Made by a program: the position numbers and the translations under genes. The notes below the pieces were generated by a model that searched no databases, was not told where the DNA came from, and saw nothing but the letters and a program-made list of their open reading frames with translations. This document shows, in pieces, positions 1 through 63,926 of a DNA stretch of 64,000 bases. How positions within the stretch are numbered: the stretch's first letter is position 1; every line of letters begins with the position of its first letter. The DNA comes from Candidatus Anstonellales archaeon (GTDB lineage Archaea; Micrarchaeota; Micrarchaeia; Anstonellales; J096): the NCBI GenBank assembly GCA_038890745.1, contig JAWAFD010000001.1, positions 156,907 through 220,906 on the forward strand, in the 5' to 3' direction.

Positions 1-244
1 ATTACCCCCCGAGGGAAGAAAGTTTAGAAATGCGAAAAGGGGCTTTGGGGATGTTATCCCCAAATGAGTTTAAGAATAGCGAAGGGGGGCGAGGCGGAAT
101 AAGCGCCAGGGGGGTATTACCCCCCGAGGGAAGAAAGTTTAGAAATGCGAAAAGGGGCTTTGGGGATGTTATCCCCAAATGAGTTTAAGAATAGCGAAGG
201 GGGGCGAGGCGGAATAAGCGCCAGGGGGGTATTACCCCCCGAGG
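1..244. repeat. 115-bp tandem repeat (2 full copies plus start of a third; may extend beyond window start) immediately 3' of tRNA-Arg(GCG)
   Basis: ATTACCCCCCGAGG recurs at 1, 116 and 231 with identical intervening sequence. Internal hairpins: GGGGGGTATTACCCCCC and TTTGGGGATGTTATCCCCAAA. Confidence 0.95.
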
Positions 245-248
245 CTTA

Positions 249-322
249 TGCCCCTGCCGAGATTTGAACTCGGATTTCAGCCTCCGCAGGGCCGCGTTCT
301 ATCCAGGTTAAACTACAGGGGC
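249..322 (-). tRNA. tRNA-Arg(GCG)
   Basis: Reverse complement reads GCCCCTG...CGGCC CTGCGGA GGCTG...CCGAG TTCAAAT CTCGG CAGGGGC A. Cloverleaf, no encoded CCA. Confidence 0.93.
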
Positions 323-381
323 GTAGTAGAAATTTTGCATTGCAACAGATTTAAAAAATGTTGTACAAAAATGTAAGAGCC

Positions 382-531
382 ATGAAAACCTGTATTACCT
401 GCGGAAGTCTTGTGAAGGATTATGTAGAATTTCCCTGCCCGAAATGTGGAGAAAAAATTGTGCGGTGCAATCATTGCAGAGAGATAAGTAATATCTATGT
501 ATGTAAAAAATGCGGGTTTGAAGGACCTTAG
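382..531 (+). CDS. small zinc-ribbon protein (DUF1610/HVO_2753-like); not in ORF track
   Basis: Manual translation MKTCITCG...FPCPKCG...RCNHCR...YVCKKCGFEGP; typical position upstream of aEF-1beta. Confidence 0.88.
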   Translation: MKTCITCGSLVKDYVEFPCPKCGEKIVRCNHCREISNIYVCKKCGFEGP

Positions 532-540
532 GTGAAGTCT

Positions 541-789
541 ATGGGAGAGGTTGCTGTTACTGTGAAAATATTTCTGGAAGATGTTGAGAAGTTAGAAGAG
601 ATAAAAAAAGCAGTGGAAAAAATTGTAAAGGTAGCAAAGAGCGAAAGCGAAGATATAGGGTTCGGGCTTAAGGCACTAAAAATTGTTTTTGTTATGGATG
701 ATGCCGGCGGAGTTGATGAGATAGAACAGAAGCTTTCCTCTATTCCCGGGGTTTCTCAGGTTCAGATTGAGGACGTGAGGAGGATATAA
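541..789 (+). CDS. ef1b: translation elongation factor aEF-1beta
   Basis: MGEVAVTVKI...EDIGFGLKAL motif, ~82 aa. Confidence 0.9.
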   Translation: MGEVAVTVKIFLEDVEKLEEIKKAVEKIVKVAKSESEDIGFGLKALKIVFVMDDAGGVDEIEQKLSSIPGVSQVQIEDVRRI

Positions 790-2323
790 GTTTTCTTATT
801 CTCTCCAACCCAAAAACCCTTAAAACAAGCACGAGTATGATCAGCCCTGCGGCCAAGAAAACAAGCACAAGCGGCGAGCCCTCAACGTCAACATAGATTT
901 TCTTTTCTTCAAACCCATCCTTTTTGAAAACTATCTCAACCCTCCCAGCATTTCTCATGGTTAGGACAGCATTGCCATCCTTTTTGTACTGCAGTCCCCC
1001 CATCTCAACTATGTAATCTCTTACAGGATTTCCTTCCTCATCCGTAACGGTGAAAGTTACTTTTTGCCCTTCTTTTATTTTTTCAGGATAGGAAACAATG
1101 AATTTTCCCTTAGGCATATCAGGGCTTCTTAAAAATTTCTTATAAGTGAATGGAGGGTTCTCTTCTCCAGAGCTGTCTAGTATTTTGCACTCGACCAGAA
1201 TCTCTCCAAAATTGTACTTATTTGGGTCAAGCCAGAAGTTCCATTCCTCCCCTCCTTCAGCACTCTCCCACCCACCATTATTAACTCTTATAAATACACT
1301 TATCTCTCCTTTTCCATGCGCATTTCCTTCTATCTTTACATCCTTGTACCCGAAAACCTCTGTTTCAGGTGTTTTGATTGAGCATCCCCTAAGAGGGTTT
1401 GAAGCGTATATCTTGCTTTCGGTTGAAACTACCGCCGGATTATTCCCTGCTTTTCCAGTTATGCTTTCTTTTGGTGTGAATTCCACTAAAATTTTCCCTC
1501 TTTGAGCGTCGACAACATGGATGGCATTCCTCCCAAAAAAAAGAACATAAACATTATTCCCCTCAACAATAACATCCGGCTTGTAAAAATAGCTTTCATC
1601 CATATCTATCTTCCAAAGCGTTTTTCCATTCATCATATCAACAATATACCCTGCGCTTCCGGTTCCAACGCAAACTATGTTTCCGTATGCTTTTGGAGAG
1701 TAAACCCAATCGTTGAACTCTTTTTTCCACATCATCTTTCCTTCGCTTGTGAATGCATAAAGATTTCCGAAACTGTTTGCGTACACCATCCCCCCTTTTA
1801 TTTCAGGAATGGATTTCCACCACTTCCCTATTTCTCTTCTAAATCTCAAGTTTCCGGCATCTCCGTAAACAACGAGTTCGTTTCCTGAATAATATGCAAC
1901 CATCCCTTCTCCATAAACCGGAGGAGATTTTGTTGAATTTTCGCTTACATTCCATATACTCCTTCCATCATAATCAAATGCGTAAACCCCTGTATCCGAT
2001 GTAACAAAAAACCTATTGCTTGCAACGGCCATGCCGGTTAGATTGCTCATATTTTTCTCCCATTTTACATTTCCGCTTCCGTCCAAATAATATATCTTAT
2101 CCTTTGTCACTACAACAAAATTCTGTGCACCCGCGATAGCAATGCTTTTAATATTTTTTTCAAAAACAACCGCGCCCGTTTCTTTTTCTAAAACCATCGT
2201 TTTCTCTCCCGTAACCCCGACCTTTGTTCCAAGGTCAAAAAGCTCCCCGCCTCCACTCACGCTCCAGTATGCTACAGAATAAAAAACAGAGAAAAAAAGA
2301 AATAGAAGAAAGATTTTTTTCAT
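740..2323 (-). CDS. secreted/membrane-anchored PQQ-like beta-propeller protein with Ig-like C-terminal domains
   Basis: Signal peptide MKKIFLLFLFF, repeated 'G..kW' blades, C-terminal TM helix. Confidence 0.7.
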   Translation of the reverse strand: MKKIFLLFLFFSVFYSVAYWSVSGGGELFDLGTKVGVTGEKTMVLEKETGAVVFEKNIKSIAIAGAQNFVVVTKDKIYYLDGSGNVKWEKNMSNLTGMAVASNRFFVTSDTGVYAFDYDGRSIWNVSENSTKSPPVYGEGMVAYYSGNELVVYGDAGNLRFRREIGKWWKSIPEIKGGMVYANSFGNLYAFTSEGKMMWKKEFNDWVYSPKAYGNIVCVGTGSAGYIVDMMNGKTLWKIDMDESYFYKPDVIVEGNNVYVLFFGRNAIHVVDAQRGKILVEFTPKESITGKAGNNPAVVSTESKIYASNPLRGCSIKTPETEVFGYKDVKIEGNAHGKGEISVFIRVNNGGWESAEGGEEWNFWLDPNKYNFGEILVECKILDSSGEENPPFTYKKFLRSPDMPKGKFIVSYPEKIKEGQKVTFTVTDEEGNPVRDYIVEMGGLQYKKDGNAVLTMRNAGRVEIVFKKDGFEEKKIYVDVEGSPLVLVFLAAGLIILVLVLRVFGLERIRKLISSSRPQSEPEKPRE

Positions 2324-2327
2324 ATGC

Positions 2328-2807
2328 TCACTTGAAAAGGGAATCATGCTTCCCTTCGTTTATTTCCTTTACGATTTCTTTTGCATTCTTTCCATTCACA
2401 GTAATCCCCATGCTCACGCAACTTCCCAAAACCTCCTTAACAGTATCCTTCAAACTCTTTGAAAGATTTTTTCCCCTTACGCTTTTTGCAATCTTCACGA
2501 CACTTTCAATGGTGATGTTTCCCTTTGCCTCCTTACCGGCTGTTCCACTCCCCTTCTCTACCCCGGCCTCTTTTTTAAGAAGCTCGGAAACAGGTGGGGA
2601 ACCAACCTCTATTTTAAAGGTTTTTGTTTTCGGGTCTACGATTATCTTAACAGGAACCTTTGTTCCAGCGAATGCAGCCGTCTGCTTGTTTATCTCAGCG
2701 ACAACCATACCCGCGTTTATCCCCAACGGTCCAAGTGCAGGCCCTATAGGTGGCCCCGCTGTTGCCTTTCCCCCTTCAACTATCGCGTTTATTATTTTTT
2801 CTGCCAT
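2328..2807 (-). CDS. rpl11: 50S ribosomal protein uL11
   Basis: GGKATAGPPIGPALGPLG and GSCVSMG motifs. Confidence 0.97.
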   Translation of the reverse strand: MAEKIINAIVEGGKATAGPPIGPALGPLGINAGMVVAEINKQTAAFAGTKVPVKIIVDPKTKTFKIEVGSPPVSELLKKEAGVEKGSGTAGKEAKGNITIESVVKIAKSVRGKNLSKSLKDTVKEVLGSCVSMGITVNGKNAKEIVKEINEGKHDSLFK

Positions 2808-2842
2808 AAGAATCACTTTGATTATTATATTTCATAAGTATT

Positions 2843-4603
2843 TTAACTTTTGCCTTTTTTTCTTATTATTTCCATTACTTCCTCTGCCTCCACCCTGGTC
2901 CTGTATTTCTGCATTATTTTTTTCAGGTCCCATCCTTCCTCCTCCACTACCCTCTCAAGCTCCTTTCCGCTTATTCTCCCCATCCTTTCAACTACCTCTT
3001 TTTCGCTCTTTCCGTTCGCAAACATTCTCAGCGCTTCTTCAATTCCGTTTTTTGCTAGTTTCTTTTCACCATACATCAGCAAAACTTTTTCTACCATTTT
3101 TTCATCAATCTTAAGCCCCTCTCTTCTAAGCGCTCTCCATCTGTCCTCTATTACGCTTGCAGCAACCTTCGCATCCACTCCTTTTCCAACGAGGCGCTCG
3201 AACAATCCATAGCACTTGCTTCTCAACATTTTCTCAGTCAAATCCCTTCCAAGCATATTTTCCAACCAAGCGCGCTTTTCCTCCAACCCCATTCCCATAC
3301 CCTTTCTAATCCCATCAATCCTTTCCTTTGTTATTCTCACAACAGGTATATCTGTTTCAGGATACATCCTCGCCTTTCCCGGAAGCGGGCGCATGTATGC
3401 AGTTGTTCCATTGGGAAGAGCCTTTCTCGTCTCACCCGGAACAAAATCCATTTTTGCCCTTTCAAAAACAAACCCGAGCGCCCTTTTTGCTGTTTCTGCG
3501 CTCGCAACAACAATCGCAAATCCATCCTCCTTTCCACATCCCAGCGCATTCGCAATTTCATCCACATTTTCAATTCCGTATTTTTCCAGATTTTCATCTG
3601 AATGTACTATTCCCTTCACACCTGCTTTTTTTGCATAATCGCTGAGCTCGCTTCCGTACCTTCTATTCTCACCAAGCTCTACCCCAAGCATTCCTTTATG
3701 TCCGTTGAGTTTTAAACCTAAAATTTTTTCGCCTTTTTCAACCGCATTTTTTATGAAACCGCCCCTCAATTTCACTACTCCAGTAATATCTTTTGGTTCG
3801 AATTTTAATTTTTCAAAAGCATTTTTTTCTTTTAATTTTTTTATTATCTCAATTATTTTTCTCTGCCTCTCAGCTTCGTTTTCTATCCACTTAGGAAGCA
3901 TGTTCAGTTCCTGCGCACCTTTTATCTCAACCCTTGCCCCACCCTCTATGCTCACGTTCAAATCCTGCCTTATTGTTCCTATCCCTCTCATAACCTTTCC
4001 TGTTGCCCTGAGCATCAGCCCTATTTTTTCAGCGACCTCCTTTGCATGCTCCGGGTCCTTTATATCCGGCGCGGTTGCAATCTCAATAAGCGGAATACCC
4101 AACCGATCCAATCTAAAAGAGTTTTCGCTTACTATCCCTGCACTCTCCTCTTCCAAACAAAGTGTTTCTATCCCAACCTCTCCCTTAGATGTTTCCATCC
4201 TGCCGTCCACCGCGATTATCGCGGTCCTCTGAAAGCCAGCGGTATTGCTTCCGTCTATTACAATCTTTCTCATCACGTGTACCTCATCAAAAATTTCCAT
4301 GTTCATTCTAACCGCCATCTCTATTGCAACATCCAATGCATTCTCATTTATAGAATGGGGCGGCTCTTCATCAGCCTCAACCAGGCATGATGAATCCGAG
4401 AAATAATGATACTCAAATACCCTTTCCCTTACTCCTTCCAGTAATGCCGCTTTATCTATTTCTCCAACCTCTGAATACACAACATGCAGATTTCTTTTCA
4501 ATATCGCATCCGGCTTTTTATCCCCCTCTTCATAAAGCGAAGGGCAGTTGCAGAAAAGTTTTTTTGTCGCAAGCCGCTGATGGATCTCTATTCCTATTTT
4601 CAT
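2843..4603 (-). CDS. gatE: Glu-tRNA(Gln) amidotransferase subunit E
   Basis: KIGIEIHQRL, IDGSNTAGFQRT, RPLPGKARMYPETD. Confidence 0.96.
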   Translation of the reverse strand: MKIGIEIHQRLATKKLFCNCPSLYEEGDKKPDAILKRNLHVVYSEVGEIDKAALLEGVRERVFEYHYFSDSSCLVEADEEPPHSINENALDVAIEMAVRMNMEIFDEVHVMRKIVIDGSNTAGFQRTAIIAVDGRMETSKGEVGIETLCLEEESAGIVSENSFRLDRLGIPLIEIATAPDIKDPEHAKEVAEKIGLMLRATGKVMRGIGTIRQDLNVSIEGGARVEIKGAQELNMLPKWIENEAERQRKIIEIIKKLKEKNAFEKLKFEPKDITGVVKLRGGFIKNAVEKGEKILGLKLNGHKGMLGVELGENRRYGSELSDYAKKAGVKGIVHSDENLEKYGIENVDEIANALGCGKEDGFAIVVASAETAKRALGFVFERAKMDFVPGETRKALPNGTTAYMRPLPGKARMYPETDIPVVRITKERIDGIRKGMGMGLEEKRAWLENMLGRDLTEKMLRSKCYGLFERLVGKGVDAKVAASVIEDRWRALRREGLKIDEKMVEKVLLMYGEKKLAKNGIEEALRMFANGKSEKEVVERMGRISGKELERVVEEEGWDLKKIMQKYRTRVEAEEVMEIIRKKGKS

Positions 4604-4656
4604 GCATTCCATTCTATGCTTAGATTTAAAAATGGTTGTCGCCATAGAAATAAAAC

Positions 4657-6862: not shown

Positions 6863-6928
6863 GTTTTTAAAGAAGAGGGAAAACATTTAAATACAATTTG
6901 TTTAAAAAGAAAGAAAGAGGGAGCAATT

Positions 6929-7704: not shown

Positions 7705-7724
7705 TGTAAGCAATATAAATTTTT

Positions 7725-8369: not shown

Positions 8370-8374
8370 GGGGG

Positions 8375-10617: not shown

Positions 10618-11493
10618 ATGTCTGCAATAATCACATTTTTGGGCACTTCTGGAAGTATACCATCTGTAGAGAGGGGAATGCCCAGCTTTGCGCTTAATTG
10701 GCAGGGCGAAATTTTTCTCTTTGATGCCGGAGAAGGTTTTCAGAGACAGATGATGAGGCATCGGGTGGGGTACGGAAGCGTAAGCCATGTTTTCATAAGC
10801 CATCTCCATCTAGACCATTTTATAGGGTTGTATGGGTTCATAGAAACCCTCAGGCTTTCAGGTACGAAAAAACTTTTTGTGCACGCCCCGCGCGGTTTTG
10901 AGAAACTACTCATAAACAAATGGGATTTTCTTGAGGTTAAAGAAATAAAAGAAGGGGAAATTTTGAGAGGAAAGGATTACTCGATTTCTGCATTTAAGGT
11001 AAAGCATGGCGGGAGGGCATTTGGTTTTGTTTTTGAGGAGGATGATAGGATAAGGTTTGATGAGAAAAAAGCAAAATCCCTTGGTATAAGGGGAAAACTA
11101 TTTTCTGAAATAGAGAAAAAAAAGGAAATTGTTATAAACGGAAGAAAAATTCTGCTAAGCGAGGTTAGCTGGGTGAAGCCGGGCAGAAAGATTATATACA
11201 CTGGGGATACTTTAGAGGATGAAAGAATAGTTGAGCATGCAAAGGATGCGGATATTTTGATACATGAAGCAACTTTTCTTGAAGAGCATAAAGATGAAGC
11301 TGAGAAAAGAATGCATTCCACAGCGGCCCAAGCTGCGAAAACAGCATCTAAGGCAAATGTCAAAACCCTTGTTCTAACCCATATAAGCCCGCGGTACCAT
11401 CTTTCTGATGAGGAGAAATTCATAAAAGAAGCAAAAAAGTATTTTGATGGAAACGTAATGGTTGCGCGCGATGGAATGACGATTGAGGTTTAA
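10618..11493 (+). CDS. rnz: ribonuclease Z
   Basis: FLGTSGSIP, HLHLDH, HEAT, HST, HISPRY. Confidence 0.95.
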   Translation: MSAIITFLGTSGSIPSVERGMPSFALNWQGEIFLFDAGEGFQRQMMRHRVGYGSVSHVFISHLHLDHFIGLYGFIETLRLSGTKKLFVHAPRGFEKLLINKWDFLEVKEIKEGEILRGKDYSISAFKVKHGGRAFGFVFEEDDRIRFDEKKAKSLGIRGKLFSEIEKKKEIVINGRKILLSEVSWVKPGRKIIYTGDTLEDERIVEHAKDADILIHEATFLEEHKDEAEKRMHSTAAQAAKTASKANVKTLVLTHISPRYHLSDEEKFIKEAKKYFDGNVMVARDGMTIEV

Positions 11494-12858: not shown

Positions 12859-13893
12859 ATGGTTCCGCAGAAAAAGGTTGCAAAAGAACAGGGATATTTC
12901 AGGCTCAAGGATGATTATGGCGAATATCCTGCCGGCACTGTTTTCATAAACAACAGGATAATCTATGGCTACCCTCACATAAAAAGAATATTCACTTTGG
13001 AGAACGGAATTAAAAAGAACATAGGAGAAGATGAGTTTTTTGTTGAGGAGAAAATAGATGGCTACAATGTACGCGTTGCGTATGTTGATGGAAAGGTTGT
13101 TGCGTTTACAAGGTCTGGAAAGGTTGAGCCTTTCGCCTCTGAAAAACTCGCCGGCCTAAAAAATTTTTTTGAAGAGAACCCTCAGCTCGTTGTATGCGGG
13201 GAGATGTTGGGCAACACGCCCTTCACCCCGCCTACCGATGAATTTGATTTTAAATTCTATGTTTTTGATTTCATGAATAAAAAAACCATCCTCCCGCTTA
13301 ATGAGAAACAAAAAATAATAAAAAAATACAAATTTCTTTCTGTTCCATTTCTCGGAAAATTCAGAAAAAGTGAAGAGCCGTGGAAAAAACTAAGGGAGAT
13401 TGCAACATTTCTGAACAAGGGAAAAAGGGAAGGAATGATAATGAAAGGTATCTCATGCAAGAGCGCTGTGAAATACGTTACACCGAATTCTGATATAGAA
13501 GACATAATGCAGAATGCTAGGTTTATTTTTGATATGCCGGTTGGTTTTTTTAATCAGCGTGTTTTTAGGAGTTCGCTCTTTCTTGAAGAGTCTGGTATGA
13601 GTGTTGAGGAGTATGAAAAAAAACTTGGAGAGGCATTCTACTCCTCTCTGCTTGATGGAATAAAGCAGTTCAAGAAAGAAGGGGCTGTAAAAGAGGAGTT
13701 TAGGATTTTTGTAAACAACGAAGAAACCTGGAATGCGATTTATTCAATGCTTAAGAGGAGCCGGGAGATAGAAATTGCAGATGTTTATAAATGGAGGCAT
13801 GGGGATAGGATAGGGGTACGCTTTTCAAAAATATACAGAAAAACAACACAGAAATTTAAGAAATTTCTCTCAGGACATGCGATAGAGGACTAG
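12859..13893 (+). CDS. ATP-dependent RNA ligase, archaeal Rnl3 family
   Basis: GYPHIKR, motif I EKIDGYN, GE, FD, EG, VKY. Confidence 0.9.
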   Translation: MVPQKKVAKEQGYFRLKDDYGEYPAGTVFINNRIIYGYPHIKRIFTLENGIKKNIGEDEFFVEEKIDGYNVRVAYVDGKVVAFTRSGKVEPFASEKLAGLKNFFEENPQLVVCGEMLGNTPFTPPTDEFDFKFYVFDFMNKKTILPLNEKQKIIKKYKFLSVPFLGKFRKSEEPWKKLREIATFLNKGKREGMIMKGISCKSAVKYVTPNSDIEDIMQNARFIFDMPVGFFNQRVFRSSLFLEESGMSVEEYEKKLGEAFYSSLLDGIKQFKKEGAVKEEFRIFVNNEETWNAIYSMLKRSREIEIADVYKWRHGDRIGVRFSKIYRKTTQKFKKFLSGHAIED

Positions 13894-22347: not shown

Positions 22348-22387
22348 GGTTTTGATTGAGGGAGCATATTTTTAAATTATCTACATC

Positions 22388-22841
22388 CCTCGGGTCAAAC
22401 CACATAATAAATAAGATAGGGGGGTTGATAATAGGGGGGGTTAACTAATAAGTTGAGGTCCCCCCTGTTGTTTGGACTCGGAGGGATTTGAACCCTCTCC
22501 TCGGGTCAAACCACATAATAAATAAGATAGGGGGGTTGATAATAGGGGGGGTTAACTAATAAGTTGAGGTCCCCCCTGTTGTTTGGACTCGGAGGGATTT
22601 GAACCCTCTCCTCGGGTTAAATCCTCCTCTCTAACCCTTTTTGCTCCTATTACACTAGGGGTGGAAGCGCCAGGGGGATGAGAAAGAGTTAAAGCCCCCT
22701 GGGCTTTGGACTCGGAGGGATTTGAACCCTCTCCTCGGGTCAAATCCCATAATAAATAAGATAGGGGGGTTGACAATAGGGGGGTTAGCTAATAAGTTGA
22801 GGTCCCCCCTGTTGTTTGGACTCGGAGGGATTTGAACCCTC
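22388..22841 (-). repeat. array of tRNA-Ala 3'-half direct repeats separated by ~70-85-nt hairpin units
   Basis: TTTGGACTCGGAGGGATTTGAACCCTC at 22471, 22582, 22705 and 22815 (the last is the tRNA itself). Periods 111/123/110; partial end repeat CCTCGGGTCAAA at 22388. Confidence 0.93.
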
Positions 22842-22888
22842 GGCCTCTCCCGTGCGAGGGGAGCGATCTACCGCTGATCTACGAGCCC
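22817..22888 (-). tRNA. tRNA-Ala(CGC)
   Basis: GGGCTCG...CTCCC CTCGCAC GGGAG...GAGGG TTCAAAT CCCTC CGAGTCC A; G3:U70 alanine identity pair. Confidence 0.95.
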
Positions 22889-23306: not shown

Positions 23307-23628
23307 CGGGCCTGGTGGGACTCTCAGCCAAACCACCACATCCCCCCTAATAAAATAGGGGGTGGAGGCGTGATGCGGTGAAACAAGTGCGACCCAAAAG
23401 TTTAGGAGGGTTGGGTCGCACCGAAGCCCTCCGGGTTGTTTCATCGCATCAGTGATGCGGTGAAACAAGTGCGACCCAAAAGTTTAGGAGGGTTGGGTCG
23501 CACCGAAGCCCTCCGGGTTGTTTCACCCCATCAGGGGGATAAAAATGAGTTAAAGTCCCCCTGGGCTTTTGAACCCACGACCTTCAGCTTAGAAGGCTGT
23601 CGCTCTATCCAAGCTGAGCTACAGGCCC
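23307..23628 (-). tRNA. tRNA-Arg(TCT) with a 247-nt intron at 59/60 (intron 23321-23567)
   Basis: Exon 1 GGGCCTG...CTTCTAA...GTGGGTTCAAA, exon 2 TCCCACCAGGCCCG. BHB: TTCA/TGAG helix with AAA and AGT bulges. Confidence 0.87.
23370..23533. repeat. 82-bp tandem duplication of a nested hairpin inside the tRNA-Arg intron
   Basis: GTGATGCGGTGAAACAA...TTGTTTCATCGCATCA at 23370 and 23452; inner stem GTGCGACCCAA/TTGGGTCGCAC. Confidence 0.95.
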
Positions 23629-27307: not shown

Positions 27308-28277
27308 TCTCTCAGATTTTTTCCTACCGATAGATTTTTAAACCCCTTCATCAATAAAATTAAGCCTGCTGCATGTGTTTGTCTATTGCGGCTCATCTTT
27401 CGTCTAGATTGATGGTAATGAGGATGAAGAGCGAGCAAATTTAGGATGTGCTGTTATTAGAACCCGCTTAGTGGATGGCTTGGCTGAGGCAAGCATGGCT
27501 CCGTGGCAAGCTGCGATAAGCCTAGGGTAGCCGCATGCAGGCTGTAATCCTAGGATCGGGCTGTGCACAGGAATGTGCAACAACCCCGGGAAATGAAGCA
27601 TCTTAGTACCGGGTGGAAAAGAAAGCAACTGCGATCCGGGTAGTAATGGCGAATGAACCCCGGACAGACCGTCACGAATGGCCCGTAGTAATACGGGTAC
27701 AGATGTGTGGGGGAGCATCCTTTCTCTGACTCAAAGTTCCCTGGAACGGGACGCCAAAGAGGGTGAAAGCCCCGTAGAGGAAGGAGAGAGGAGCGATCCA
27801 GATGAGTACCGTGCTCTGGCTGAGCTCGGGAAGATGGGGGTACTAACCTCCAAGTCTAAATATGTGCCTCAGACCGATAGCGAATTAGTAGCGCGAGCGA
27901 ACGCTGAAAAGCACCCCGGAAGGGGGGTTAAAAGAGCCTGAAACTATGCGGGGACAGGCAGCCAGGGCTCAAAAGGTTGGCCTGCTGAACTTCCTGTTCG
28001 AGAGGGCAGGTTGGAGGCAGGTGTTCCAGAGTTCTGGCATTCTTCTCGAAGCAAGAGCCAGGGAGTTACTTGCGGTGGCGAGCTGAAAGGCGAAGCGAAA
28101 GCAAAAGCCCGCAGGAAACGAGGGGCGTCCTCTTAACCGGGGACCAGTCACCGCATGCAGACCCGAAGCCCGTTGCGAACTACGCCCGAGCAGGGTGAAG
28201 CCAGCCGTCAGGTTGGTCGAGGCCCGCAACTAGTGGTGGTATATTCCCCTTAGGTGACTCGGGTGTAGGGGTGAAAG

Positions 28278-28325
28278 ACAGCGGTTCTTTTCAGGTTTTT
28301 AGGAAGGGAAGAACCGCTGGTCAAA
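28278..28325 (+). other. 48-nt BHB mini-intron in 23S
   Basis: Removal restores GGGGTGAAAG|TCCAATCG; stem CAGCGGTTCTT/AAGAACCGCTG; AGA and AAT bulges; central helix has one mismatch. Confidence 0.82.
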
Positions 28326-28855
28326 TCCAATCGAGCCGGGTGATAGCGGGTTCCTTCCGAGATGAGTCTCAGCTCAGCGTCGCCGGAGCTTGAAGGTGGG
28401 GTAGAGCACCGATTAGGGAGTAAGGGGGAGAAATCCCTCCCTTCCTTATCGAACTCCGAATCTACCTTCGGCGTAGATGGCGGCAGTGGGGTTCCTCGGG
28501 GTAAGCTTGAGGGCCATTACGGGAACGACCGTACGCGGGGCTAAGGACCCTAAGTGCTGGCTAAGTGTGAATCTTAAAGGAGGCCCCTCCCCAAGACAGC
28601 TGGGAGGTAGGCTTAGAAGCAGCCACCCTCCAAACAACGCGTAATAGCGGACCAGTCGAGGGAGCGGTCTCTAAAAATTTACGGGGCTAAGCCAGCCTCC
28701 GATTCCCCGCCCCTCCGAAAGGAGAGGAGTAGGAAGGCGTCCGGATTGCGGAGAAGTAAGGGCGTGAGCTCTTATGGAGCAATCTGGAATGAATATCCTG
28801 GCGCTAGTAGCAGCATATCCAGGTGAGAATCCTGGAGGGCTGATAGGGCACGGTT

Positions 28856-28886
<31 letters not shown>

Positions 28887-28931
28887 ACGCTGGTAGTTCA
28901 GGTTTTTAGGAAGGGACTACCAGCGGACCAA
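28887..28931 (+). other. 45-nt BHB mini-intron in 23S
   Basis: Removal restores GGGTTAG|GCGGTCCTAAG; GGTT/GACC helix with AGA and AAG bulges; stem CGCTGGTAGT/ACTACCAGCG. Confidence 0.88.
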
Positions 28932-29475
28932 GCGGTCCTAAGCGCACCCCTAATCGGAAGTGCGCGAAAGGGAAGCGGGTTAATATTCCCGCCCCATGAA
29001 GATAGGCGCGGCAACGCAAGGGGTTTTGCTGACGCCTTGGGATAGGTTCAGCGGAAGAGATTCCGTCTAAAGAGGATAGAACTGCAGAGTCTCATTGTGA
29101 GGAGAAGCAGTTCAAACTCTTATGGGGAAACTGGACTGATTCCTGGGGCCCATGAAAAGGCAAAACCCAACGATTCTTCATGCCCGTACCTAGAACTAGT
29201 ACAGGTGCCCCTAGCTGAAAAGGCTCAGCCCTGTAGGGAGAACCCAAGCGAGGGAATTCGGCAAGTTAGCTCCGTATCCTCGGTAGAAGGAGTGCCTGCT
29301 TTCGATGAGAAGGCAGGTGGCACTGACAAGGGGGGAGCGACTGTTTATCAAAAACACAGGTCATCGCAAAGCAGAAATGCCTAGTACGATGGCCGACGCC
29401 TGCTCACTGCTGGTACCTGAAAGCCCGGTTCAACGGGAAGAAGGGCCAGTAAAGAGCGGAGGTAACTCTGACCTT

Positions 29476-30181
29476 CAACCTAAGGAGGTCGTAAAATCTG
29501 GCTATATGCTGGGAACCCAGATGGTTCGCACTACATAGAATGTGAAAATGTGCGAATCGATGAGGGCAATCAGCAGGAAACTTCTAAACCTAAAAAAGAG
29601 GTGGTTGTATGAAAAAATATGCGCAGCTGAGTAAGCTGTTTAAAAAAGGAAAGTACCTAGCCTACTATTTGGTTGGGTTCGTTGATGCCGAAGGATGCTT
29701 CAGCGTGGCTCTGAAAAAGCAAGAGGGAACAAGGTTCGGATGGGTATTAGACCCAGTGTTTCATATTACGCAGCATGAAAGTGCAAGAGATGTTCTTGAG
29801 CTTGCTAGAGCCCATCTAAAATGCGGGCGAATAATCCAAAAACCTGGTCAAGAAGAAACCTTGCAGCTCGTGGTTGATAACAGAAAACAACTTGCAGAAA
29901 AAATAATACCGTTCTTTACTAAGCACAAGCTTTTAGTAAAAGCTAAAGACTTCGAGCTTTTCAAGGAGATTGTACTTGGATTGGAGAGAAAGGAACATTC
30001 CACGCTGGAAGGATTTAAGCGGCTGTTGAAGCTTGCCTTCTCAATGAATATGGAAGGGAAGCAGAGAAGGTATGATTTGGAAGAGGTGATAAAAGGTTTA
30101 GGAGGATCCTCAGAGACTCTACGCCAGACGCCATAGTGCGATGATAGAGTCCAATCCACACAGTAATGTGTGATAAGATTG
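29476..30181 (+). mobile_element. group I intron in 23S (approx. E. coli position 1923) with homing endonuclease
   Basis: Exon ends in U (GACCTT) and pairs with IGS GAGGTC. Core elements present: P (ATATGCTGGG), Q (AATCAGCAGG), R (TCAGAGACTCT), S (GATAGAGTCC). Terminal G precedes CTTAAGGTAGCG. Confidence 0.9.
29609..30136 (+). CDS. single-motif LAGLIDADG homing endonuclease (group I intron)
   Basis: YLVGFVDAEGCF, FHITQ; GAGGTG Shine-Dalgarno upstream. Confidence 0.92.
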   Translation: MKKYAQLSKLFKKGKYLAYYLVGFVDAEGCFSVALKKQEGTRFGWVLDPVFHITQHESARDVLELARAHLKCGRIIQKPGQEETLQLVVDNRKQLAEKIIPFFTKHKLLVKAKDFELFKEIVLGLERKEHSTLEGFKRLLKLAFSMNMEGKQRRYDLEEVIKGLGGSSETLRQTP

Positions 30182-30221
30182 CTTAAGGTAGCGTAATACC
30201 TCGCCGCTTAATTGGCGGCTT

Positions 30222-30933
30222 AAGAGCATGCCTCCTTACTCTGGAAGCGAAGCGTCGTAAAGTATTTAACCGCAGCAGTGAAAAGAGTATCATGAAAAAC
30301 CTCTCTTATCTCCTCGGCGTTTTAAGAGACGGTTCGTTGCCAACGTGCAGGGAAAAAGCCGAAGTTACCCTTGCAGCCGATTATTCAAGAGATTGGCTCG
30401 TTATGATTGCAAAGATGGCCAGTGTAGAATTTTCAATTCCGCTGAAAAGATTCAAAATTTATAAAGTGTGGGCAAACAAGAGCAAGAGATATTGTTTTCG
30501 TCTTAAAGTATATTCAAAAGAGCTTTACGAACTACTGCTTAGGTATTATCCAGCAGGAAGTCAAATTTACTGGAAAACACCTGCTGTGGTAAAAACCTCT
30601 TTTGAGAATAGACTTGCCTATCTTGCTGGATTTTATGATGCAGAAGGTGGATGCAGAAATGCTGAACGTTTCGTAAATGGATTTACAAAAAGTTTTCAGT
30701 GCTGGTGTTCAATAAGGTGCAAACATTATTTTTCCCCAAATGAGCCTTTGTTGTTCTTAAAAAATGTGCTGCAGGGTATGAATGTGACTTCGAGCATTTA
30801 CGATTCTGACGAGTTGGTTTTAACGGGCATTAAAAATATTAAGAGATTTTACACTCTTGTGCCTTTAAAACATCAGAAAAAGAAAAAAGACTTGGAAAAT
30901 ATGATTCTTTTTTCAGAGGCATGCTCTGCCGAA
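30222..30933 (+). mobile_element. 712-nt BHB intron in 23S with homing endonuclease
   Basis: CGGC/GCCG helix, TTA and AAG bulges, AGAGCATGCCTC/GAGGCATGCTCT stem; removal restores GCGGCTT|GCATGAATGG. Confidence 0.9.
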
Positions 30934-30939
30934 GCATGA
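30292..30939 (+). CDS. two-motif LAGLIDADG homing endonuclease
   Basis: YLLGVLRDGS and YLAGFYDAEGG. Confidence 0.88.
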   Translation: MKNLSYLLGVLRDGSLPTCREKAEVTLAADYSRDWLVMIAKMASVEFSIPLKRFKIYKVWANKSKRYCFRLKVYSKELYELLLRYYPAGSQIYWKTPAVVKTSFENRLAYLAGFYDAEGGCRNAERFVNGFTKSFQCWCSIRCKHYFSPNEPLLFLKNVLQGMNVTSSIYDSDELVLTGIKNIKRFYTLVPLKHQKKKKDLENMILFSEACSAEA

Positions 30940-31408
30940 ATGGCGTAACGTCTCCCCCACTGTCCCTGCTTGGGACCCTGTGAAGTCACTTCCCGGTGAA
31001 GATGCCGGGGACTTCCAGTGGGAAACGAAGACCCCATGGAGCTTTACTATAGCCTGGTGTTTTTTCATCGGTGGGATTACAGAGCGTAGGTGGGAGCCTT
31101 CGAAGCAACCCTTTCGGGGGTTGTGGAGGCGCCAATGTAACACCACCTTATCTTGTCGGTGAGGATTACCCGCAAGGGAACAGCACCAGGTGGATAGTTT
31201 GGCTGGGGCGGTACGCCCACGATAAAGAAACATGGGCGCCCAATGGTCAACTCACCCGGGTCAGAAATCCGGGGAAGAGGGTGAAGGACATATGTTGGCC
31301 TGACTGTATCCCTAAAAGCGTGGGATGCAGATGCGAAAGCAGGGCCTAGCGAACCTGGGCTGCCTATTAGTAGGGCATCCAGCTGTCAAACAAGCTACCC
31401 TGGGGGTA

Positions 31409-32051
31409 ATTTGTTCTGCGGTATATTTCTCGGAGACGAGGTATCGCAACGTATTTAAACGACTCAATTAGAATAAGTAGTATGCACAGCGACTTGGCAT
31501 ACCTACTCGGAGCAGGAGGAGACGCAACTGCAATCTACTACAAACCAAAGAATGAGTACTATATTGAATACGAGCAAAAATCGAAAGAATGGCTAGAGAA
31601 TTCAATACTGCCGCGCGTGGAAAGAGTATTTGGAAAGAAAACAGCATCGAAGCAAAGAAAGTCAGGGATGTACCGTGTTAGGTTCTATTCAAAGGATGCG
31701 TTTTTTCTTTTCTTAGAAATAAGAAAAAATCCTTTGAAAATCCTCCGATGGAGCAAAGAAGCACAGGTGAATTTTGTGAAAGGTTTTTTCGATGCAGAGG
31801 GCTCTGTTCAGTGTAAACCGCGAATGCGAATTCAGATATATCAAAAATCAAAAGCAGTATTACATGTGATTTCTAAGATCTTAACTGCCGTTGGAATAAA
31901 ATGTGGAAATATCACTACCTCACGGGATGTTTTTATTCTACCAATCCGGTCGAAAACAAATTTGATTAAATTTAGTCGTTTTATCGGCTCCGAGGATCCG
32001 CAAAAACTAAAAGTGTTTGCGGATTTGAAATACCGTTGAACAAAACCCTTA
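31409..32051 (+). mobile_element. 643-nt BHB intron in 23S peptidyl-transferase loop (approx. E. coli 2450/2451) with homing endonuclease
   Basis: GGGG/CCCT helix, two TAA bulges, TTTGTTC/GAACAAA stem; removal restores CTGGGGGTA|ACAGG. Confidence 0.85.
31482..32039 (+). CDS. two-motif LAGLIDADG homing endonuclease
   Basis: [10 protein letters not shown] and [11 protein letters not shown]. Confidence 0.88.
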
Positions 32052-32078
32052 ACAGGCTCGTCGCGGGCGAGAGTACAC

Positions 32079-32151
32079 AAACCCTTTTCTTTCTTGTAAG
32101 AAAGAAAAGCGTTTACGGAAAAGAAAGAACTTTTTTGTAAAGTTTGTACAA
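32079..32151 (+). other. 73-nt AU-rich BHB mini-intron in 23S
   Basis: GTAC/GTAC helix, ACA and AAA bulges; removal restores GAGAGTACAC|ATCGACCCC; internal hairpin CTTTTCTTTCTT/AAGAAAGAAAAG. Confidence 0.82.
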
Positions 32152-32641
32152 ATCGACCCCGCGGCTTGGTACATCGCTGTCGGCTTGGGCCATCCTGGTG
32201 GTGCAGGAGCCACCAAGGGTTGGGTTGTTCATCCATTAAAGGCCCACATGAGCTGGGTTCAGTACGTCGCGAGACAGTACGGTAGTATCTGCTGGAAGTG
32301 TAGCTCTTTGAGGGAAGGGGTCTTTTAGTACGAGAGGAACTTGGACCCGGGGCCTCTGGTTTACCGGTTGTCACAGGCACTGCCGGGCAGCCACGCCCCA
32401 TGGTGATAAGACCTGAAAGCATCTAAGGTCGAAGCACCTCCCAAAACTAGAGAGCAAAGCCCGCCCATAGCAGATGGGTTTGATAGGACGGTGGTGTAAG
32501 CAGCAAGGGCAACCGAGCTGCTCAGCCAGCCGTTACTAAAGGGATAATCCATCTTAAATTTGCTCGCTCTTCTCCGATGATTTCTAAATCTTTGCGTTGA
32601 CAATGCAAATATTTATAAAATCTTCGCATTTCTATTTAAAT

Positions 32642-48779: not shown

Positions 48780-48780
48780 T

Positions 48781-55821: not shown

Positions 55822-55858
55822 AACACTAAACTCCCCCATGGTTATGCATCGCTTTTCG

Positions 55859-56632: not shown

Positions 56633-56663
56633 CTTTTTATTATTTTCCTTTCAAATTTTGGAT

Positions 56664-58163: not shown

Positions 58164-58777
58164 TCCTTTTTTCCGGCGGTAAGGATTCTGTTTTTGCTAC
58201 TTTCTGCGCCCTTCATACCGGCTGGGATGTTTCTCTCCTAACCGTTTTGGGTTATGATGAAAGCAAAATGTTTCATAAGCCAAATTTAAAATACACAAAA
58301 ATGCAGGCTGAGGCGATGGGACTAAAACATTATTTTGTTGAAAGCGATGATGAGCTTAACGGTGTTAAAAGGTTTTTGGAAAAAAACAATTTTGATGGGA
58401 TTGTTAGTGGAGCGATAGCAAGCGAATACCAAAAACAAAAAATAGACATGCTGGGCGAAGAGCTTGGGATTCCGACCTATTCTTTTCTTTGGCACAAAGA
58501 AAAACAGCTTCTTTCCGAAGTTCTGGAATATTTCGAGACATACATTGTTTCTGTTTCTGCTGAGGGTTTGGGGAAAGAGCTTTTGGGAAAGCCATTCCAA
58601 ATGCTGAGAACAAAATACCCGATCCATCCGTTGCTTGAAGGGGGAGAGGGAGAAACGTTCGTTGCATGGGCACCATTTTTCAAAAAAAGAATAAAGATTG
58701 AAAAGTGGAGGATAAAATGGGATGGGGTGAGGGGCGAGGCGGAGATAGAGAAAGCAAAGCTCATTTCACTCCGTTAG
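58151..58777 (+). CDS. diphthine--ammonia ligase family PP-loop ATPase
   Basis: SGGKDS, SGAIASEYQ, EGGEGET. Confidence 0.88.
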   Translation: MEVLVLFSGGKDSVFATFCALHTGWDVSLLTVLGYDESKMFHKPNLKYTKMQAEAMGLKHYFVESDDELNGVKRFLEKNNFDGIVSGAIASEYQKQKIDMLGEELGIPTYSFLWHKEKQLLSEVLEYFETYIVSVSAEGLGKELLGKPFQMLRTKYPIHPLLEGGEGETFVAWAPFFKKRIKIEKWRIKWDGVRGEAEIEKAKLISLR

Positions 58778-60602: not shown

Positions 60603-60630
60603 AAAAAAATTTAGCAGTAAACCTTTATAA

Positions 60631-61317
60631 TTATGATTTAACCACTATTCCGCTCTTAGTAATCTCCATAGGGTAGAGCCTCATCTCATGCCTCGCTCCC
60701 TTCATTTTCAAGATTTCTATCATCCTTTCCCTCCTCTCCTCTCTCCATATATAATGGATGTGTATCCATCCATCCACAAGCGTTTCTATTCCGTATTTCG
60801 TTGATGGAAGAACATCCTGGGTTGTCGTTGGGGTATCCTCGGTGATTATGAATGTGGTTGTATTCCATTTCTTTATATTCTCTATGAGCTTCATGAACCC
60901 CCTCTTCCTCTCCAAATCCGTGTTGAAGTGAAGGGCGATGGGCATTATAGAATCTATCACAACCCTTTCGATCCCCATGGTTTCTATCAGCTCTTTTATG
61001 GGATTCATTTTTGAGATAAACTGATCTACTTCGTGTGGAGGGTAGTCAAGGAAAAAAAGCTTTTTGTTTTTTTCGAGAAAACTGATATTCCAAGAAAATT
61101 CGTTCATCTGTTCAACAACATCTTCCTTTGTGCTTTCTATCGGTATGTATAGGCCGGCCTCGCCCTGCTCTGCTCCACCCACGATAAAATTCATTCCAAA
61201 TGTGGATTTTCCGCAGCCGGTTGGTCCGCTTATCGCAATCACGCTTCTCTTAGGTATTCCTCCACCCAAAATTTTATCAAGTCCCTTTATACCTGATTTT
61301 ATAAGCTCCATTTTCAT
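60631..61317 (-). CDS. KaiC/RAD55-like RecA-fold ATPase
   Basis: SGIKGLD, GPTGCGKS, VVIDS, KMKG. Confidence 0.88.
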   Translation of the reverse strand: MKMELIKSGIKGLDKILGGGIPKRSVIAISGPTGCGKSTFGMNFIVGGAEQGEAGLYIPIESTKEDVVEQMNEFSWNISFLEKNKKLFFLDYPPHEVDQFISKMNPIKELIETMGIERVVIDSIMPIALHFNTDLERKRGFMKLIENIKKWNTTTFIITEDTPTTTQDVLPSTKYGIETLVDGWIHIHYIWREERRERMIEILKMKGARHEMRLYPMEITKSGIVVKS

Positions 61318-61808
61318 CCCTTCTTTCTGCTTTTTTCAAGAAGCATCCTTCCCAATTTTATTCTGTTTTCAAGCTCCTTTTTTATCCTTTCCAAATCCTC
61401 TTTTTTTGCAACCCTTTCTAGAATGTACTTTTTATTGTCAAACATCATCGTTGACACAGACATCAGGAGTTCGTGTGCATCAGCCATGCTAATTTTTATC
61501 TCCTCTGGCTCGAGTATTTCAACAGAGAATGGATTGTACTTTCCTACAAAATTGACTAGTGCGGGCATGCTCTTCGCAAGAAGCTTAACTTCTATCGCAG
61601 TGGAAACCACATCCTTATCTTGGATGGGTTCATCTATCTCTCCCTTAACATAAACTATCCCGGGCTCGCTCAACATTCTCTTTATAAAACCGGTTGAAAA
61701 CTCTTTTATTTTCTCGCTATCAGTTCCATGCACATCAAAATAGAGTAGTGCCAGCACACCCCCATTCTTCACGGTTTCCTTTATCAGTTTTTCTTCATTG
61801 ATCTCCAT
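61314..61808 (-). CDS. hypothetical protein
   Basis: 164-aa ORF co-oriented and overlapping with the KaiC-like gene. Confidence 0.6.
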   Translation of the reverse strand: MEINEEKLIKETVKNGGVLALLYFDVHGTDSEKIKEFSTGFIKRMLSEPGIVYVKGEIDEPIQDKDVVSTAIEVKLLAKSMPALVNFVGKYNPFSVEILEPEEIKISMADAHELLMSVSTMMFDNKKYILERVAKKEDLERIKKELENRIKLGRMLLEKSRKKG

Positions 61809-61875
61809 GCTATCGCTTTCTTTCTTATCAGAAAAACTTTATAAAGTTGCTATATAAAACAATATAGGGGTTTTT

Positions 61876-62652
61876 ATGAAGCTCAGGGAGAAGTTTATCA
61901 AAAAAGCGCGCGCTGGGATAAAAGAAGCCGGCGAAAAAAAGGATGCCTATCTTGCTAATGTTGAGAGAACGCTCGAAGAAATAGATGAGGTAATAAACAT
62001 TCTTGCGGAGAGGCTTGAAGACTGGTACGGGCTTTACTTTCCGGAGCTTAAAAGCGATGATAAGGCAAGGTACGCATCAATCGTTCTTGCAATAGAAGAT
62101 AGAAAAAATATAGATGTTGATGAGCTGCGCAAGATTGCGGGAAAGAATGCAGAAAAAATTGCTGAATTGGGAAAAAGAAGCAGCGGCGCAGAAGAGTTTG
62201 ACCTCTCAGAACCGAAAAAACTTGCTGGCGAGATTGTTTCTTTGGCTCAGCTTCGCTCCCACTATGAAAAAACTATTGAGAGGATTGCAAAAGAAATCTG
62301 CCCGAATGCAACAGAGATCGCAGGTGGGAGGATAGTTGCAATGCTGATTGCCCATGCCGGAAGTTTGGAAAGACTTTCAAAAATGCCTGCCTCAACCATA
62401 CAGGTTCTTGGCGCAGAAAAGGCACTCTTCAAACATCTTAGGAACAAGAAAAAGATTGCACCCCCAAAACACGGCATACTTTTTTTGCATCAGTGGATAA
62501 GCAAGGCACCGAAAAAAGTTCGTGGAAAACTTGCCAGGACTATTGCGGCAAAGCTCGCAATAGCGTTTAAGGTTGATTATGGAAAGGGAGGGTTTATAGG
62601 TGATAAATTAAAGGCGCAGATAGATAAAAGGAGGAGGGAGCTCCTAAAATGA
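61876..62652 (+). CDS. nop5: C/D box sRNP protein Nop5
   Basis: WYGLYFPE, PASTIQVLGAEKALF, PKHG. Confidence 0.93.
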   Translation: MKLREKFIKKARAGIKEAGEKKDAYLANVERTLEEIDEVINILAERLEDWYGLYFPELKSDDKARYASIVLAIEDRKNIDVDELRKIAGKNAEKIAELGKRSSGAEEFDLSEPKKLAGEIVSLAQLRSHYEKTIERIAKEICPNATEIAGGRIVAMLIAHAGSLERLSKMPASTIQVLGAEKALFKHLRNKKKIAPPKHGILFLHQWISKAPKKVRGKLARTIAAKLAIAFKVDYGKGGFIGDKLKAQIDKRRRELLK

Positions 62653-63287
62653 TCCGCATCCTCGCGCTTGCAGACCTGCACAATGATGAAATGGTTTTGG
62701 ACCGGCTGAGGGTTTTGGAATCGGATAGAAAGTATGATTATTTGGTTGTTGCCGGTGATGTTACCGGAAAAAATATAAGCTACGCACAGGATTTCATAAG
62801 CATCGTTCAGCAGGTATTCTGGGTTCCCGGGAATAATGAAAGTGAAGAGGTAAGAAGGATGTTTGAGGATGCAAAATTTTCTGTTCATGGAAAAAGGGTT
62901 GAGATAAAGGAAGGGTTTAATGTCGTTGGTTTTGGTTTCTCCACCCCAACCCCTTTCAAAACCCCAGGTGAGATGCCTGAGGAGGAGATATACGCCCATA
63001 TGTCTTCTCTGAAAATAGATGCAAACACCATTCTCATAACGCATTCCCCTCCCCATGGACTTTTTGACAGCATTGGGGAAGGGATAAACATAGGAAGTAG
63101 ATCGATTAGAAAAATCATAGAGGAGAAACAACCCAAGCTTGCGCTATTTGGTCATGTTCATGAGCACTTTGGCAAAGCAAACATTGGAAGGACGATATGC
63201 ATAAAAATACCGCATGCCCCATCCCTCAAAGCTGCTGCTGTTGAAATCAGGCACGGGCATGCAGAAGTGTATTTTGTGGAAATATGA
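62649..63287 (+). CDS. metallophosphoesterase
   Basis: DLH, GD, GNNE, HSPP, GHVHE. Confidence 0.9.
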   Translation: MIRILALADLHNDEMVLDRLRVLESDRKYDYLVVAGDVTGKNISYAQDFISIVQQVFWVPGNNESEEVRRMFEDAKFSVHGKRVEIKEGFNVVGFGFSTPTPFKTPGEMPEEEIYAHMSSLKIDANTILITHSPPHGLFDSIGEGINIGSRSIRKIIEEKQPKLALFGHVHEHFGKANIGRTICIKIPHAPSLKAAAVEIRHGHAEVYFVEI

Positions 63288-63679
63288 TCAGAATACGCGC
63301 TTTAGAGAATAAAGAAAAGAAGCGAATAAAGCCGTTCATCTCAAAAATATTTCCGAATGCAAATTTTACAATAAAAAATTCTGATGAGATATTTGTTTAT
63401 GAGATAGATTCCTCACCGGTTGCGTTTGCCCACTTAAGGGAATACCTGCGCGGAACTGTCCTTCTCGGTTTTGGTGTTTTGGAGGATTTCAGAGGACAAG
63501 GAATAGGAAAACAACTTCTTTCCTTTGTTGTTAATCTTGCTGAGAAATCCCATAAAACAATATACCTAAAAGTGAGGAAAAACAACCATGCGGCAGTTTC
63601 TCTTTATAAAAGTTTTGGATTTAGAATAATAAAACGCAAGGGCGACAGACTCATAATGAAGCGCGCTTGCTTCAGTTAG
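63284..63679 (+). CDS. GNAT acetyltransferase (RimI-like)
   Basis: FRGQGIG, N..AVSLYKSFGF. Confidence 0.88.
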   Translation: MIRIRALENKEKKRIKPFISKIFPNANFTIKNSDEIFVYEIDSSPVAFAHLREYLRGTVLLGFGVLEDFRGQGIGKQLLSFVVNLAEKSHKTIYLKVRKNNHAAVSLYKSFGFRIIKRKGDRLIMKRACFS

Positions 63680-63682
63680 AAT

Positions 63683-63794
63683 GGGGAAGTGGGGTAATCT
63701 GGTTAGCCTGCGAGCTTTGGGAGCTTGCGATCCCGGTTCAAAGAGCCCTATTCAGTTGGATGGTAGAAAGGGCTTGGAAATCCGGGCTTCCCCA
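63683..63794 (+). tRNA. tRNA-Pro(TGG) with 38-nt intron at 59/60 (63743-63780)
   Basis: GGGGAAG...CGAGC TTTGGGA GCTTG...CCCGG TTCAAA[GAGCCCT...AGGGCTTGGAAA]TCCGGG CTTCCCC A. Confidence 0.93.
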
Positions 63795-63926
63795 CTAAAC
63801 CTCGGGAGGAATACCGATGTCGTTTGCCGAAAGGCTTACTTAAGTTATTTTTAAATTTACTTAACCTAACTTAAGTAAAATCCAAATTTACTTAAGTTTA
63901 AAAATTTTTAGGTTATACATCCACAT

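Follow-up and report, generated by a model that had tools for sequence, protein, structure and literature searches.

How do short non-coding repeats come to lie inside some tRNA genes as introns and directly behind others as trailers? The question is raised by a stretch of 64,000 nucleotides (the window) from Candidatus Anstonellales archaeon (assembly GCA_038890745.1, contig JAWAFD010000001.1; C1:156907-220906 of the genome referred to here as G000), in which units with a G-run/C-run hairpin stand at the genes for tRNA-Arg(TCT), tRNA-Ala(CGC), tRNA-Arg(GCG) and tRNA-Pro(TGG). The genome comprises 989,524 bp in five contigs and is 93.8% complete, and its relatives carry Micrarchaeota titles in their records. 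The original prediction took these units for one tRNA-targeting mobile RNA family, spread by reverse splicing or reintegration of excised introns. We arrive at another explanation, which we consider probable by a modest degree: the units are non-coding hairpin repeats of 50-115 bp that are copied as DNA and not as RNA among tRNA loci and that persist through their removal by tRNA processing. They are probably parasites at the DNA level, and as such they give new tRNA intron sequence a source that can be traced.

The clearest case is tRNA-Arg(TCT), which is interrupted in the T-loop between positions 59 and 60 (Table 1). The junction forms a strict bulge-helix-bulge (BHB) with 4/4 central pairs, five exon pairs and three intron pairs, and the motif also appears in the predicted minimum free energy (MFE) fold of the precursor. 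Joining of the exons gives a 7-nt T-loop and full stems, and this gene is the sole Arg(TCT) gene among the 45 tRNA loci that we curated genome-wide. By its BHB motif and by the needed tRNA that its removal restores, the insert qualifies as an archaeal 59/60 intron, and splicing is predicted. The strings quoted in the original prediction are all present at their places, except that the ends of this intron were off by 1 nt on the 5' side and 2 nt on the 3' side. Two copies of an 82-nt palindrome, which the original prediction does not mention and which occurs 16 times in the genome and in both orientations, account for 164 nt of the intron. The core without the palindromes was compared with the trailer units of tRNA-Ala(CGC) against null sequences in which the G and C runs were kept fixed; it is identical to the odd Ala unit at 51/62 positions and to ordinary Ala units at 48/70 and 51/78, in all cases above the null (p<=0.0005). 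Units of common descent are therefore found in BHB introns as well as in 3' trailers, as had been proposed, and the same holds for Arg(TCT) and Gly(CCC) when two congeners are compared (G001 and G002, 77-78% nucleotide identity to G000 on flanking genes). In the Ala array the units are set apart by the last 25 nt of the tRNA (positions 49-73), repeated exactly three times; ahead of every repeat the T-arm stands in inverted form, complete or in part, and no 59/60 BHB is predicted in the MFE fold of these tail duplications. DNA contigs from four sequencing runs, all of one study, together cover the Ala/Arg region, but no single contig spans it, and so they lend no independent confirmation to the tandem copy numbers.

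The idea of a single module at four tRNA genes was only partly borne out. The trailer of tRNA-Arg(GCG) resembles the Arg(TCT) core no better than chance (p 0.11-0.33), so that the G/C-run null beaten by the Arg(TCT) and Ala units is not beaten here, and its likeness to the odd Ala unit is weak (p 0.02-0.07; one 13-mer in common). The 20-mer behind tRNA-Pro(TGG) matches only the Arg(GCG) trailer (17/20; 0/2000 in the null), and a similar truncated head lies behind tRNA-Pro(TGG) of the congener G001. Judged by these alignments, the units of the window belong to two subfamilies alike in architecture and do not form one alignable module. Moreover, tRNA-Pro(TGG) also has a T-loop intron, which was overlooked and whose BHB comprises four central, five exon and six intron pairs. 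The Arg(GCG) array is interrupted upstream of the window by a scaffold gap of 98 N (C1:156809-156906). This join is doubtful because the synteny of both congeners puts Arg(GCG) by ftsZ (end of contig C4) and tRNA-Phe by a marC-like gene, which suggests a repeat-caused mis-join or a rearrangement.

On the scale of the genome, 59/60 introns were found at 25 of the 45 tRNA loci, 22 of them by a T-loop rule and the others in Gly(GCC), Ile and Leu(CAA). ARAGORN called 20 tRNA genes, several of them wrong, and an intron enumeration ranked by its scores proved unusable. The introns fall into a short S type (n=14), a head-to-head mosaic type L1 (n=7) and a single-unit type L2 (n=4, including Arg(TCT)), with mosaic introns spanning 130-407 nt. 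Each unit is oriented and consists of a head, the G-run/C-run hairpin and a second C-run; about a dozen subfamilies can be distinguished, which nest in each other, amplify in tandem and occur either way round. A BLAST map of 17 modules, from which the orientations were taken, comprises 119 copies in 42 clusters, 86 of them being hairpin units. Units were present at 24 of the 45 tRNA loci and are clearly not confined to the four of the window. Their sites are introns at 59/60 and 37/38, whose BHB ends are intact, the position directly behind base 73 (N73) and a few places between genes. In introns 14 copies are sense and ten antisense (n=24), in trailers 33 are sense and ten antisense (n=43), and five further copies lie upstream of a tRNA. 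The remaining 14 have no tRNA within 170 nt: seven stand at contig ends that synteny assigns to Arg(GCG) or Ala(GGC), an eighth marks a different contig end, and the other six are internal. The arrays at the ends of contigs C3 and C4 were accordingly dropped as non-tRNA copies, because congener synteny puts them behind tRNA-Arg(GCG) and tRNA-Ala(GGC). A search with the unit architecture gave 67 matches, 55 of which lie within 700 nt of a tRNA, a zone that makes up 7% of the genome, whereas five shuffled genomes yielded 1-7 matches each. A scatter over the genome without tRNA association, which had been named as grounds for abandoning the family, was thus not seen, and the association with tRNAs stands, apart from the six internal copies.

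The placement is precise. At 12 of the 45 tRNAs a sense unit begins no more than about 2 nt from N73 (in two cases via the 12-nt head of another unit), and CCA is absent at all 12 junctions examined. Among the outward-facing heads in G000, five of six chosen lie within 12 nt of a TATA-like box compared with 26% in the null; five others were omitted from this test, one lying 5 nt past a stop codon, one 4 nt ahead of a start codon and three beside repeats or a tRNA-end copy. Compact gene spacing explains part of this boundary placement, but probably not all of it.

The host encodes what the removal of such inserts would need. Its splicing endonuclease EndA is of the epsilon2 type (best PDB match 4FZ2, E 2e-88), and RtcB and RtcA are encoded as well, so that a broad-specificity EndA and a ligase are both at hand; the window itself carries the gene of an RNase Z-like protein as well as that of a Pab1020-type RNA ligase. 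The introns belong to the known BHB class at a known position, and all 22 introns of the T-loop rule set have 4/4 central pairs. Where the exon has G57, the first base that the intron contributes to the central helix is C in 8/20 rows, compared with 0/19 rows where the exon has A57 (Fisher p=0.003, for 39 called T-loop introns that include about four false calls and are not independent of each other). Therefore, it seems that the intron ends stay spliceable while the body turns over. We discarded the idea that S-type introns are born locally and de novo, as their ends do not track the T-stem of the host gene. The RtcB match is contiguous in G000 and interrupted by a large insert, probably an intein, in G001 (C35:23181-25869), G002 (C38:26765-29437) and a fourth genome, G058 (C22:186-3008).

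Table 1. Features of the window at the four tRNA genes and host genes for tRNA processing (positions within the window).
Feature	Position	Strand	Remark
Arg(GCG) 3' trailer array, hairpin unit E, about 2.2 tandem copies, period 115	1..248	-	begins at the base after N73
tRNA-Arg(GCG), intronless	249..322	-	
RNase Z-like protein (tRNA 3' trailer removal)	10618..11493	+	Pfam Lactamase_B_2, Lactamase_B_4; host machinery, outside the element
Pab1020-type RNA ligase	12859..13893	+	Pfam RNA_ligase, Lig_C; host machinery, outside the element
Ala(CGC) trailer array	22385..22816	-	four units of 85, 98, 86 and 88 nt
Odd Ala unit, palindrome-free homologue of the Arg(TCT) intron	22609..22706	-	51/62 identical, 0/2000 in the null
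tRNA-Ala(CGC), intronless	22817..22888	-	
tRNA-Arg(TCT) 3' exon, positions 60-73	23307..23320	-	T-loop intron call
Arg(TCT) 59/60 BHB intron (splicing predicted), 247 nt	23321..23567	-	head of the unit at 23567-23534, then both palindromes, then its tail at 23369-23321
Pair of palindromic modules (B), 82 nt each and in tandem, inside the Arg(TCT) unit	23370..23533	-	repeat search, module map
tRNA-Arg(TCT) 5' exon, positions 1-59	23568..23628	-	T-loop intron call
tRNA-Pro(TGG), interrupted at 59/60	63683..63794	+	
Pro(TGG) short S-type 59/60 BHB intron, 38 nt	63743..63780	+	family found across DPANN
Truncated E-type unit head	63796..63815	+	one base after N73 of tRNA-Pro

A comparison with the congeners, based on 52 tRNA-model matches in 40 stretches of G001 and G002, connects introns and trailers at orthologous genes. 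The Arg(TCT) gene of G002 is without a T-loop intron and has, according to the alignment, a homologous unit twice behind N73, and the unit that forms the intron of Gly(CCC) in G001 is a trailer in G002. The proposed link to intron turnover is supported by these cases. At most orthologous tRNAs the presence, type and position of units vary, and empty, S-type and repeat-filled sites were found together with intermediates that have a tail duplication or a half-replaced intron. In G002 the S-type intron of Lys(TTT) contains an Arg(GCG)-type unit in antisense, and tRNA-Arg(GCG) is followed by three tail copies, two of which hold an unspliced S intron in the copied T-loop. In Ala(CGC) of G000 and in Arg(GCG) and Leu(TAA) of G002, the tail copy comes after an inverted repeat of the gene's own T-arm; these fold-back copies suggest template switching. 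The trailer of Ala(GGC) in G000 bears the tail of Ala(CGC) and not its own, and therefore unit and tail were copied between loci as DNA.

We assume that the short S-type 59/60 intron, which is found DPANN-wide, would serve as a platform: units may invade it and take the place of its body, leaving the BHB ends as they are, and the Lys(TTT) intron of G002 could be an intermediate of this invasion. Spread would proceed between loci rich in hairpins, through ectopic gene conversion and through template switching, possibly after a first entry by an enzyme supplied in trans, and EndA and RNase Z would excise the units from transcripts and thereby shelter them. Duplication of the tRNA tail with T-arm fold-back, followed by a deletion, might convert a unit in the trailer to an intron in the T-loop, or act in the opposite direction. 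As a hypothesis, the fold-back would put the complement of positions 54-57 beside a spare 3' exon, so that one deletion could create a consensus intron end.

This DNA route is favored because of the antisense copies, the copying of tails between loci, the unspliced introns in the Arg(GCG) tail copies of G002, an orphan Ser 3' half far from its gene, the absence of CCA, the lack of a reverse transcriptase (RT) and the boundaries other than tRNA ends. Several observations weigh against it. The S-type introns are sense in 12/12 cases, and so are 12/12 first trailer units, none of which begins more than about 2 nt from N73; behind 30 other tRNAs the free gap has a crude median of 15 nt, and therefore selection alone does not account for this precision. 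Where trailer units of G002 adjoin in tandem, the junctions retain a tetranucleotide that resembles a strand of an intron's central helix, which hints at an intron origin. Neither a consistent target-site duplication nor a terminal inverted repeat was seen for single units, and our searches of G000 found no mobilizing enzyme. Finally, the copies are not independent of each other, so that the p-values overstate the significance.

Some of these points would be expected if excised introns were joined by EndA and RtcB to tRNA ends or reverse-spliced into T-loops and then fixed by an RT acting in trans, with the antisense copies arising from later DNA rearrangement. RNase Z cuts at N73. The exact sense placement there in 12/12 cases and the placement at 5' splice sites fit this RNA route, which could draw on EndA, RtcB, RtcA, RNase Z and the Pab1020 ligase, all of them encoded; the tandem junctions of G002 resemble an intron circle junction, and RTs were found in 3/18 members of the family. 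However, the junctions of G002 are 2-4 nt short of the circle junction and not equal to it, and no RT was found in G000, G001, G002 or five other unit-bearing genomes (assemblies 82-95% complete). Furthermore, 20 of the 67 intron and trailer copies are antisense, the N73 junctions are without CCA, six internal copies have no tRNA nearby, heads also abut promoters, which are not RNA ends, and a sister unit is found against stop and start codons as well. We therefore part from the mobile RNA proposed originally and regard this route as doubtful, though the foremost among the alternatives.

The units could also represent a class of non-coding mobile elements in DPANN that needs neither transposase nor RT, attaches its head to gene boundaries (N73 of tRNAs, splice sites, stop codons) and generates T-loop introns by tail duplication and T-arm fold-back. 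We consider this possibility unlikely.

As to the range of the repeats, the 407-nt mosaic intron as query matched 4/121 genomes, namely G000, G001, G002 and one contig start in G058. The S-intron pattern was found in 10/176 genomes of the order and also at tRNA loci of other Micrarchaeota and of Aenigmatarchaeota, where it is mixed with chance matches and matches to insertion sequence (IS) ends (38 stretches). The head of a sister unit, U2, is an identical 17-mer with a patchy occurrence in 9/401 genomes of four families; in metagenomes it was found in 101 stretches, 80 of which were retrieved, many matching by chance, while a first metagenome pattern search gave no matches. We classified 46 distinct U2 junctions by eye, some rows being the same locus in related assemblies: 17 are nested in arrays, six lie in introns, ten abut N73, two are antisense at a tRNA 5' end, five abut or overlap a stop codon and two are antisense at a start codon (these seven flagged by script), two more probably lie at such codons, and two are unexplained. 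Of 23 outer heads, 12 lie at tRNA ends and seven at script-flagged stop or start codons. Taken with the TATA-like boxes of G000, unit heads are thus directed at gene boundaries in general, though tRNAs are strongly preferred. In metagenome contigs U2 overlaps the stop codon of an EndA gene (L168:1499, L184), and an antisense U2 right ahead of a start codon sets a Shine-Dalgarno-like GAGGT 6 nt 5' of the ATG (L218, L268).

Less probable than the RNA route is that a virus or plasmid bears an enzyme dedicated to the units, a structure-specific integrase or a transposase (HUH, casposase-like or other), which inserts them at tRNA and gene ends. The patchy occurrence of the identical U2 head suggests horizontal spread, the tail duplications resemble att sites, and a casposase reads the T-loop of tRNA-Pro according to the accessible part of PMC5137440. 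In the same source, however, no more than 5 bp of the casposase duplication lie within the tRNA, and the tail duplications here are 23-45 nt or absent, unlike the 14-15 bp of casposons; five scans of viral contigs gave no unit match. The casposase itself was dropped as a candidate, as Cas1 of G000 is part of a CRISPR locus of type III and searches for it in G001 and G002 were negative, so that a stand-alone Cas1 with a 14-15 bp tRNA-end duplication is not seen in G000. This locus (C3:24800-35600, L334) comprises cas10, a csm-like gene, cas4, cas1 and cas2 with 59 spacers, which show only short low-complexity matches of 15-22 nt to the genome. A tyrosine integrase is absent from our searches of G000, G001 and G002 and was found in 3/8 tested genomes; no tyrosine recombinase at all, XerA included, was found in the near-closed G000 or its two congeners. 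Y1 transposases were found in 0/9 unit-bearing genomes and IS110 and serine recombinases in 0/4 genomes, DDE_Tnp_1 matched only G058 and not G000, and a TnpB search of G000 gave only a weak zinc-ribbon match. A Pfam scan revealed no transposase among 187 of the 876 called open reading frames (ORFs), namely basic ORFs of at least about 230 aa plus three shorter intron ORFs, the other 689 being covered only by single-family searches; 69 were rescanned at E 1e-4, of which 22 remained without a family match. In G002 a TnpB-only IS605-type element was found on C43 (L154), with a short derivative of its ends 3' of tRNA-Ala(CGC) (L049:1630-1740); the ends of this element are unrelated to the hairpin units.

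That the units are selected host elements such as terminators, RNA stabilizers or blocks to virus integration at tRNA T-arms is highly improbable: the BHB covariation is consistent with maintained splicing and the accessible parts of PMC4090602 and PMC3293823 put forward introns as a defence, but at most orthologous tRNAs the congeners differ in the presence, type and position of units, copy number and orientation are variable, and pattern and BLAST searches were empty in the other 16 family members searched.

[quoted passage not shown] REP hairpins have a conserved GTAG tetranucleotide at their foot, and by eye it was not seen in unit heads. As far as the accessible parts of PMC3333891 and PMC8266576 describe REP/BIME with TnpA-REP, these are likewise short, extragenic, non-autonomous hairpins in mosaic clusters of alternating orientation, whereas here no Y1 transposase was found, a second C-run is present and many units lie inside introns that are predicted to be spliced. 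Prokaryotic MITEs (PMC10969869, seen in part) are also non-coding and presumably trans-mobilized, and the 82-nt palindrome has inverted ends and both orientations; in contrast, single units have no terminal inverted repeats, which are restricted to this palindrome and, as inverted heads, to array ends, and no constant target-site duplication was seen by eye (the palindrome has flanks of 0-3 nt depending on the host unit, and heads are preceded by 0-2 variable nt). An autonomous partner with matching ends was not found in the IS and transposase searches of G000, the Pfam-scanned ORFs or the TnpB ends of G002. The units therefore work like REP/BIME mosaics or MITEs and are not assigned to either because they fail the enzyme and end tests. 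Integrative elements with attL/attR duplications of tRNA ends, as outlined in the accessible part of PMC3293823, repeat the tRNA 3' part behind the insert as seen here for Ala, Thr and Ser, but the inserts here are only about 85-110 bp long, lack an integrase and have duplicates that follow on an inverted repeat of the T-arm of the host gene.

For tRNA introns, the closest parallel comes from Thermoproteales, where near-identical BHB introns are common to unrelated tRNAs as they are here, and a DNA-level mechanism has been supposed (PMC4090602; 10.64898/2026.10.13.758758; both in their accessible parts). The introns of G000 differ in that their bodies are repeat mosaics of up to 407 nt whose units also occur outside introns (in trailers, upstream and between genes) and in antisense. 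How intron DNA enters archaeal tRNA genes is described as open in the accessible part of the latter report, in which copying, mobile elements and reverse transcription were tested in Asgard archaea. ARMAN-2 (Ca. Micrarchaeum acidiphilum) is of the same phylum and shares the 59/60 position, the epsilon2 EndA (PDB 4FZ2) and the interruption of over half of its tRNAs; its tested 59/60 intron has 13 nt, and no repeat cargo is mentioned in the accessible part of that report (PMC3239211). No account of repeat-built tRNA introns in Micrarchaeota was found in a literature search that reached few subscription journals and no supplements.

Beside the 59/60 introns, G000 has other non-canonical introns, in the D-arm of two Val genes and in the variable region or T-stem of two Pro genes and His (with the module D cases at C1:141697-141808, C4:91661-91773, C1:258488-258581, C3:133192-133308 and C2:307745-307867), and the anticodon introns of Leu(TAG) and Leu(TAA) contain tandem module D. 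The 23S rRNA gene of the window (27447-32559) has about six introns: by eye a group I-like one at about 29478-30183 with a LAGLIDADG_1 ORF, two more with ORFs at about 30224-30938 (without Pfam match) and 31393-32044 (LAGLIDADG_3), and short BHB-like ones at about 28280, 28888 and 32079-32151, the last of which resembles the S-type tRNA intron. An orphan 3' half of tRNA-Ser(TGA), flanked by two units, lies distant from its gene (C2:227690-227874), and C5:12936-22059 (L148) contains a tandem series of paralogous cassettes, made of divergent gene pairs with common N-termini, together with a RelE-like ORF and a repeat unit at two of the junctions.

Hairpin repeats of this kind break assemblies, and standard tools miss most of the tRNAs concerned. 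For the tRNA genes of these archaea they provide a visible donor, with one repeat found in introns, behind tRNAs and between genes, and intron gain and turnover become testable through strain comparison. If elements that attach to gene boundaries should indeed be at work, a generator of archaeal tRNA introns would have been caught in the act.

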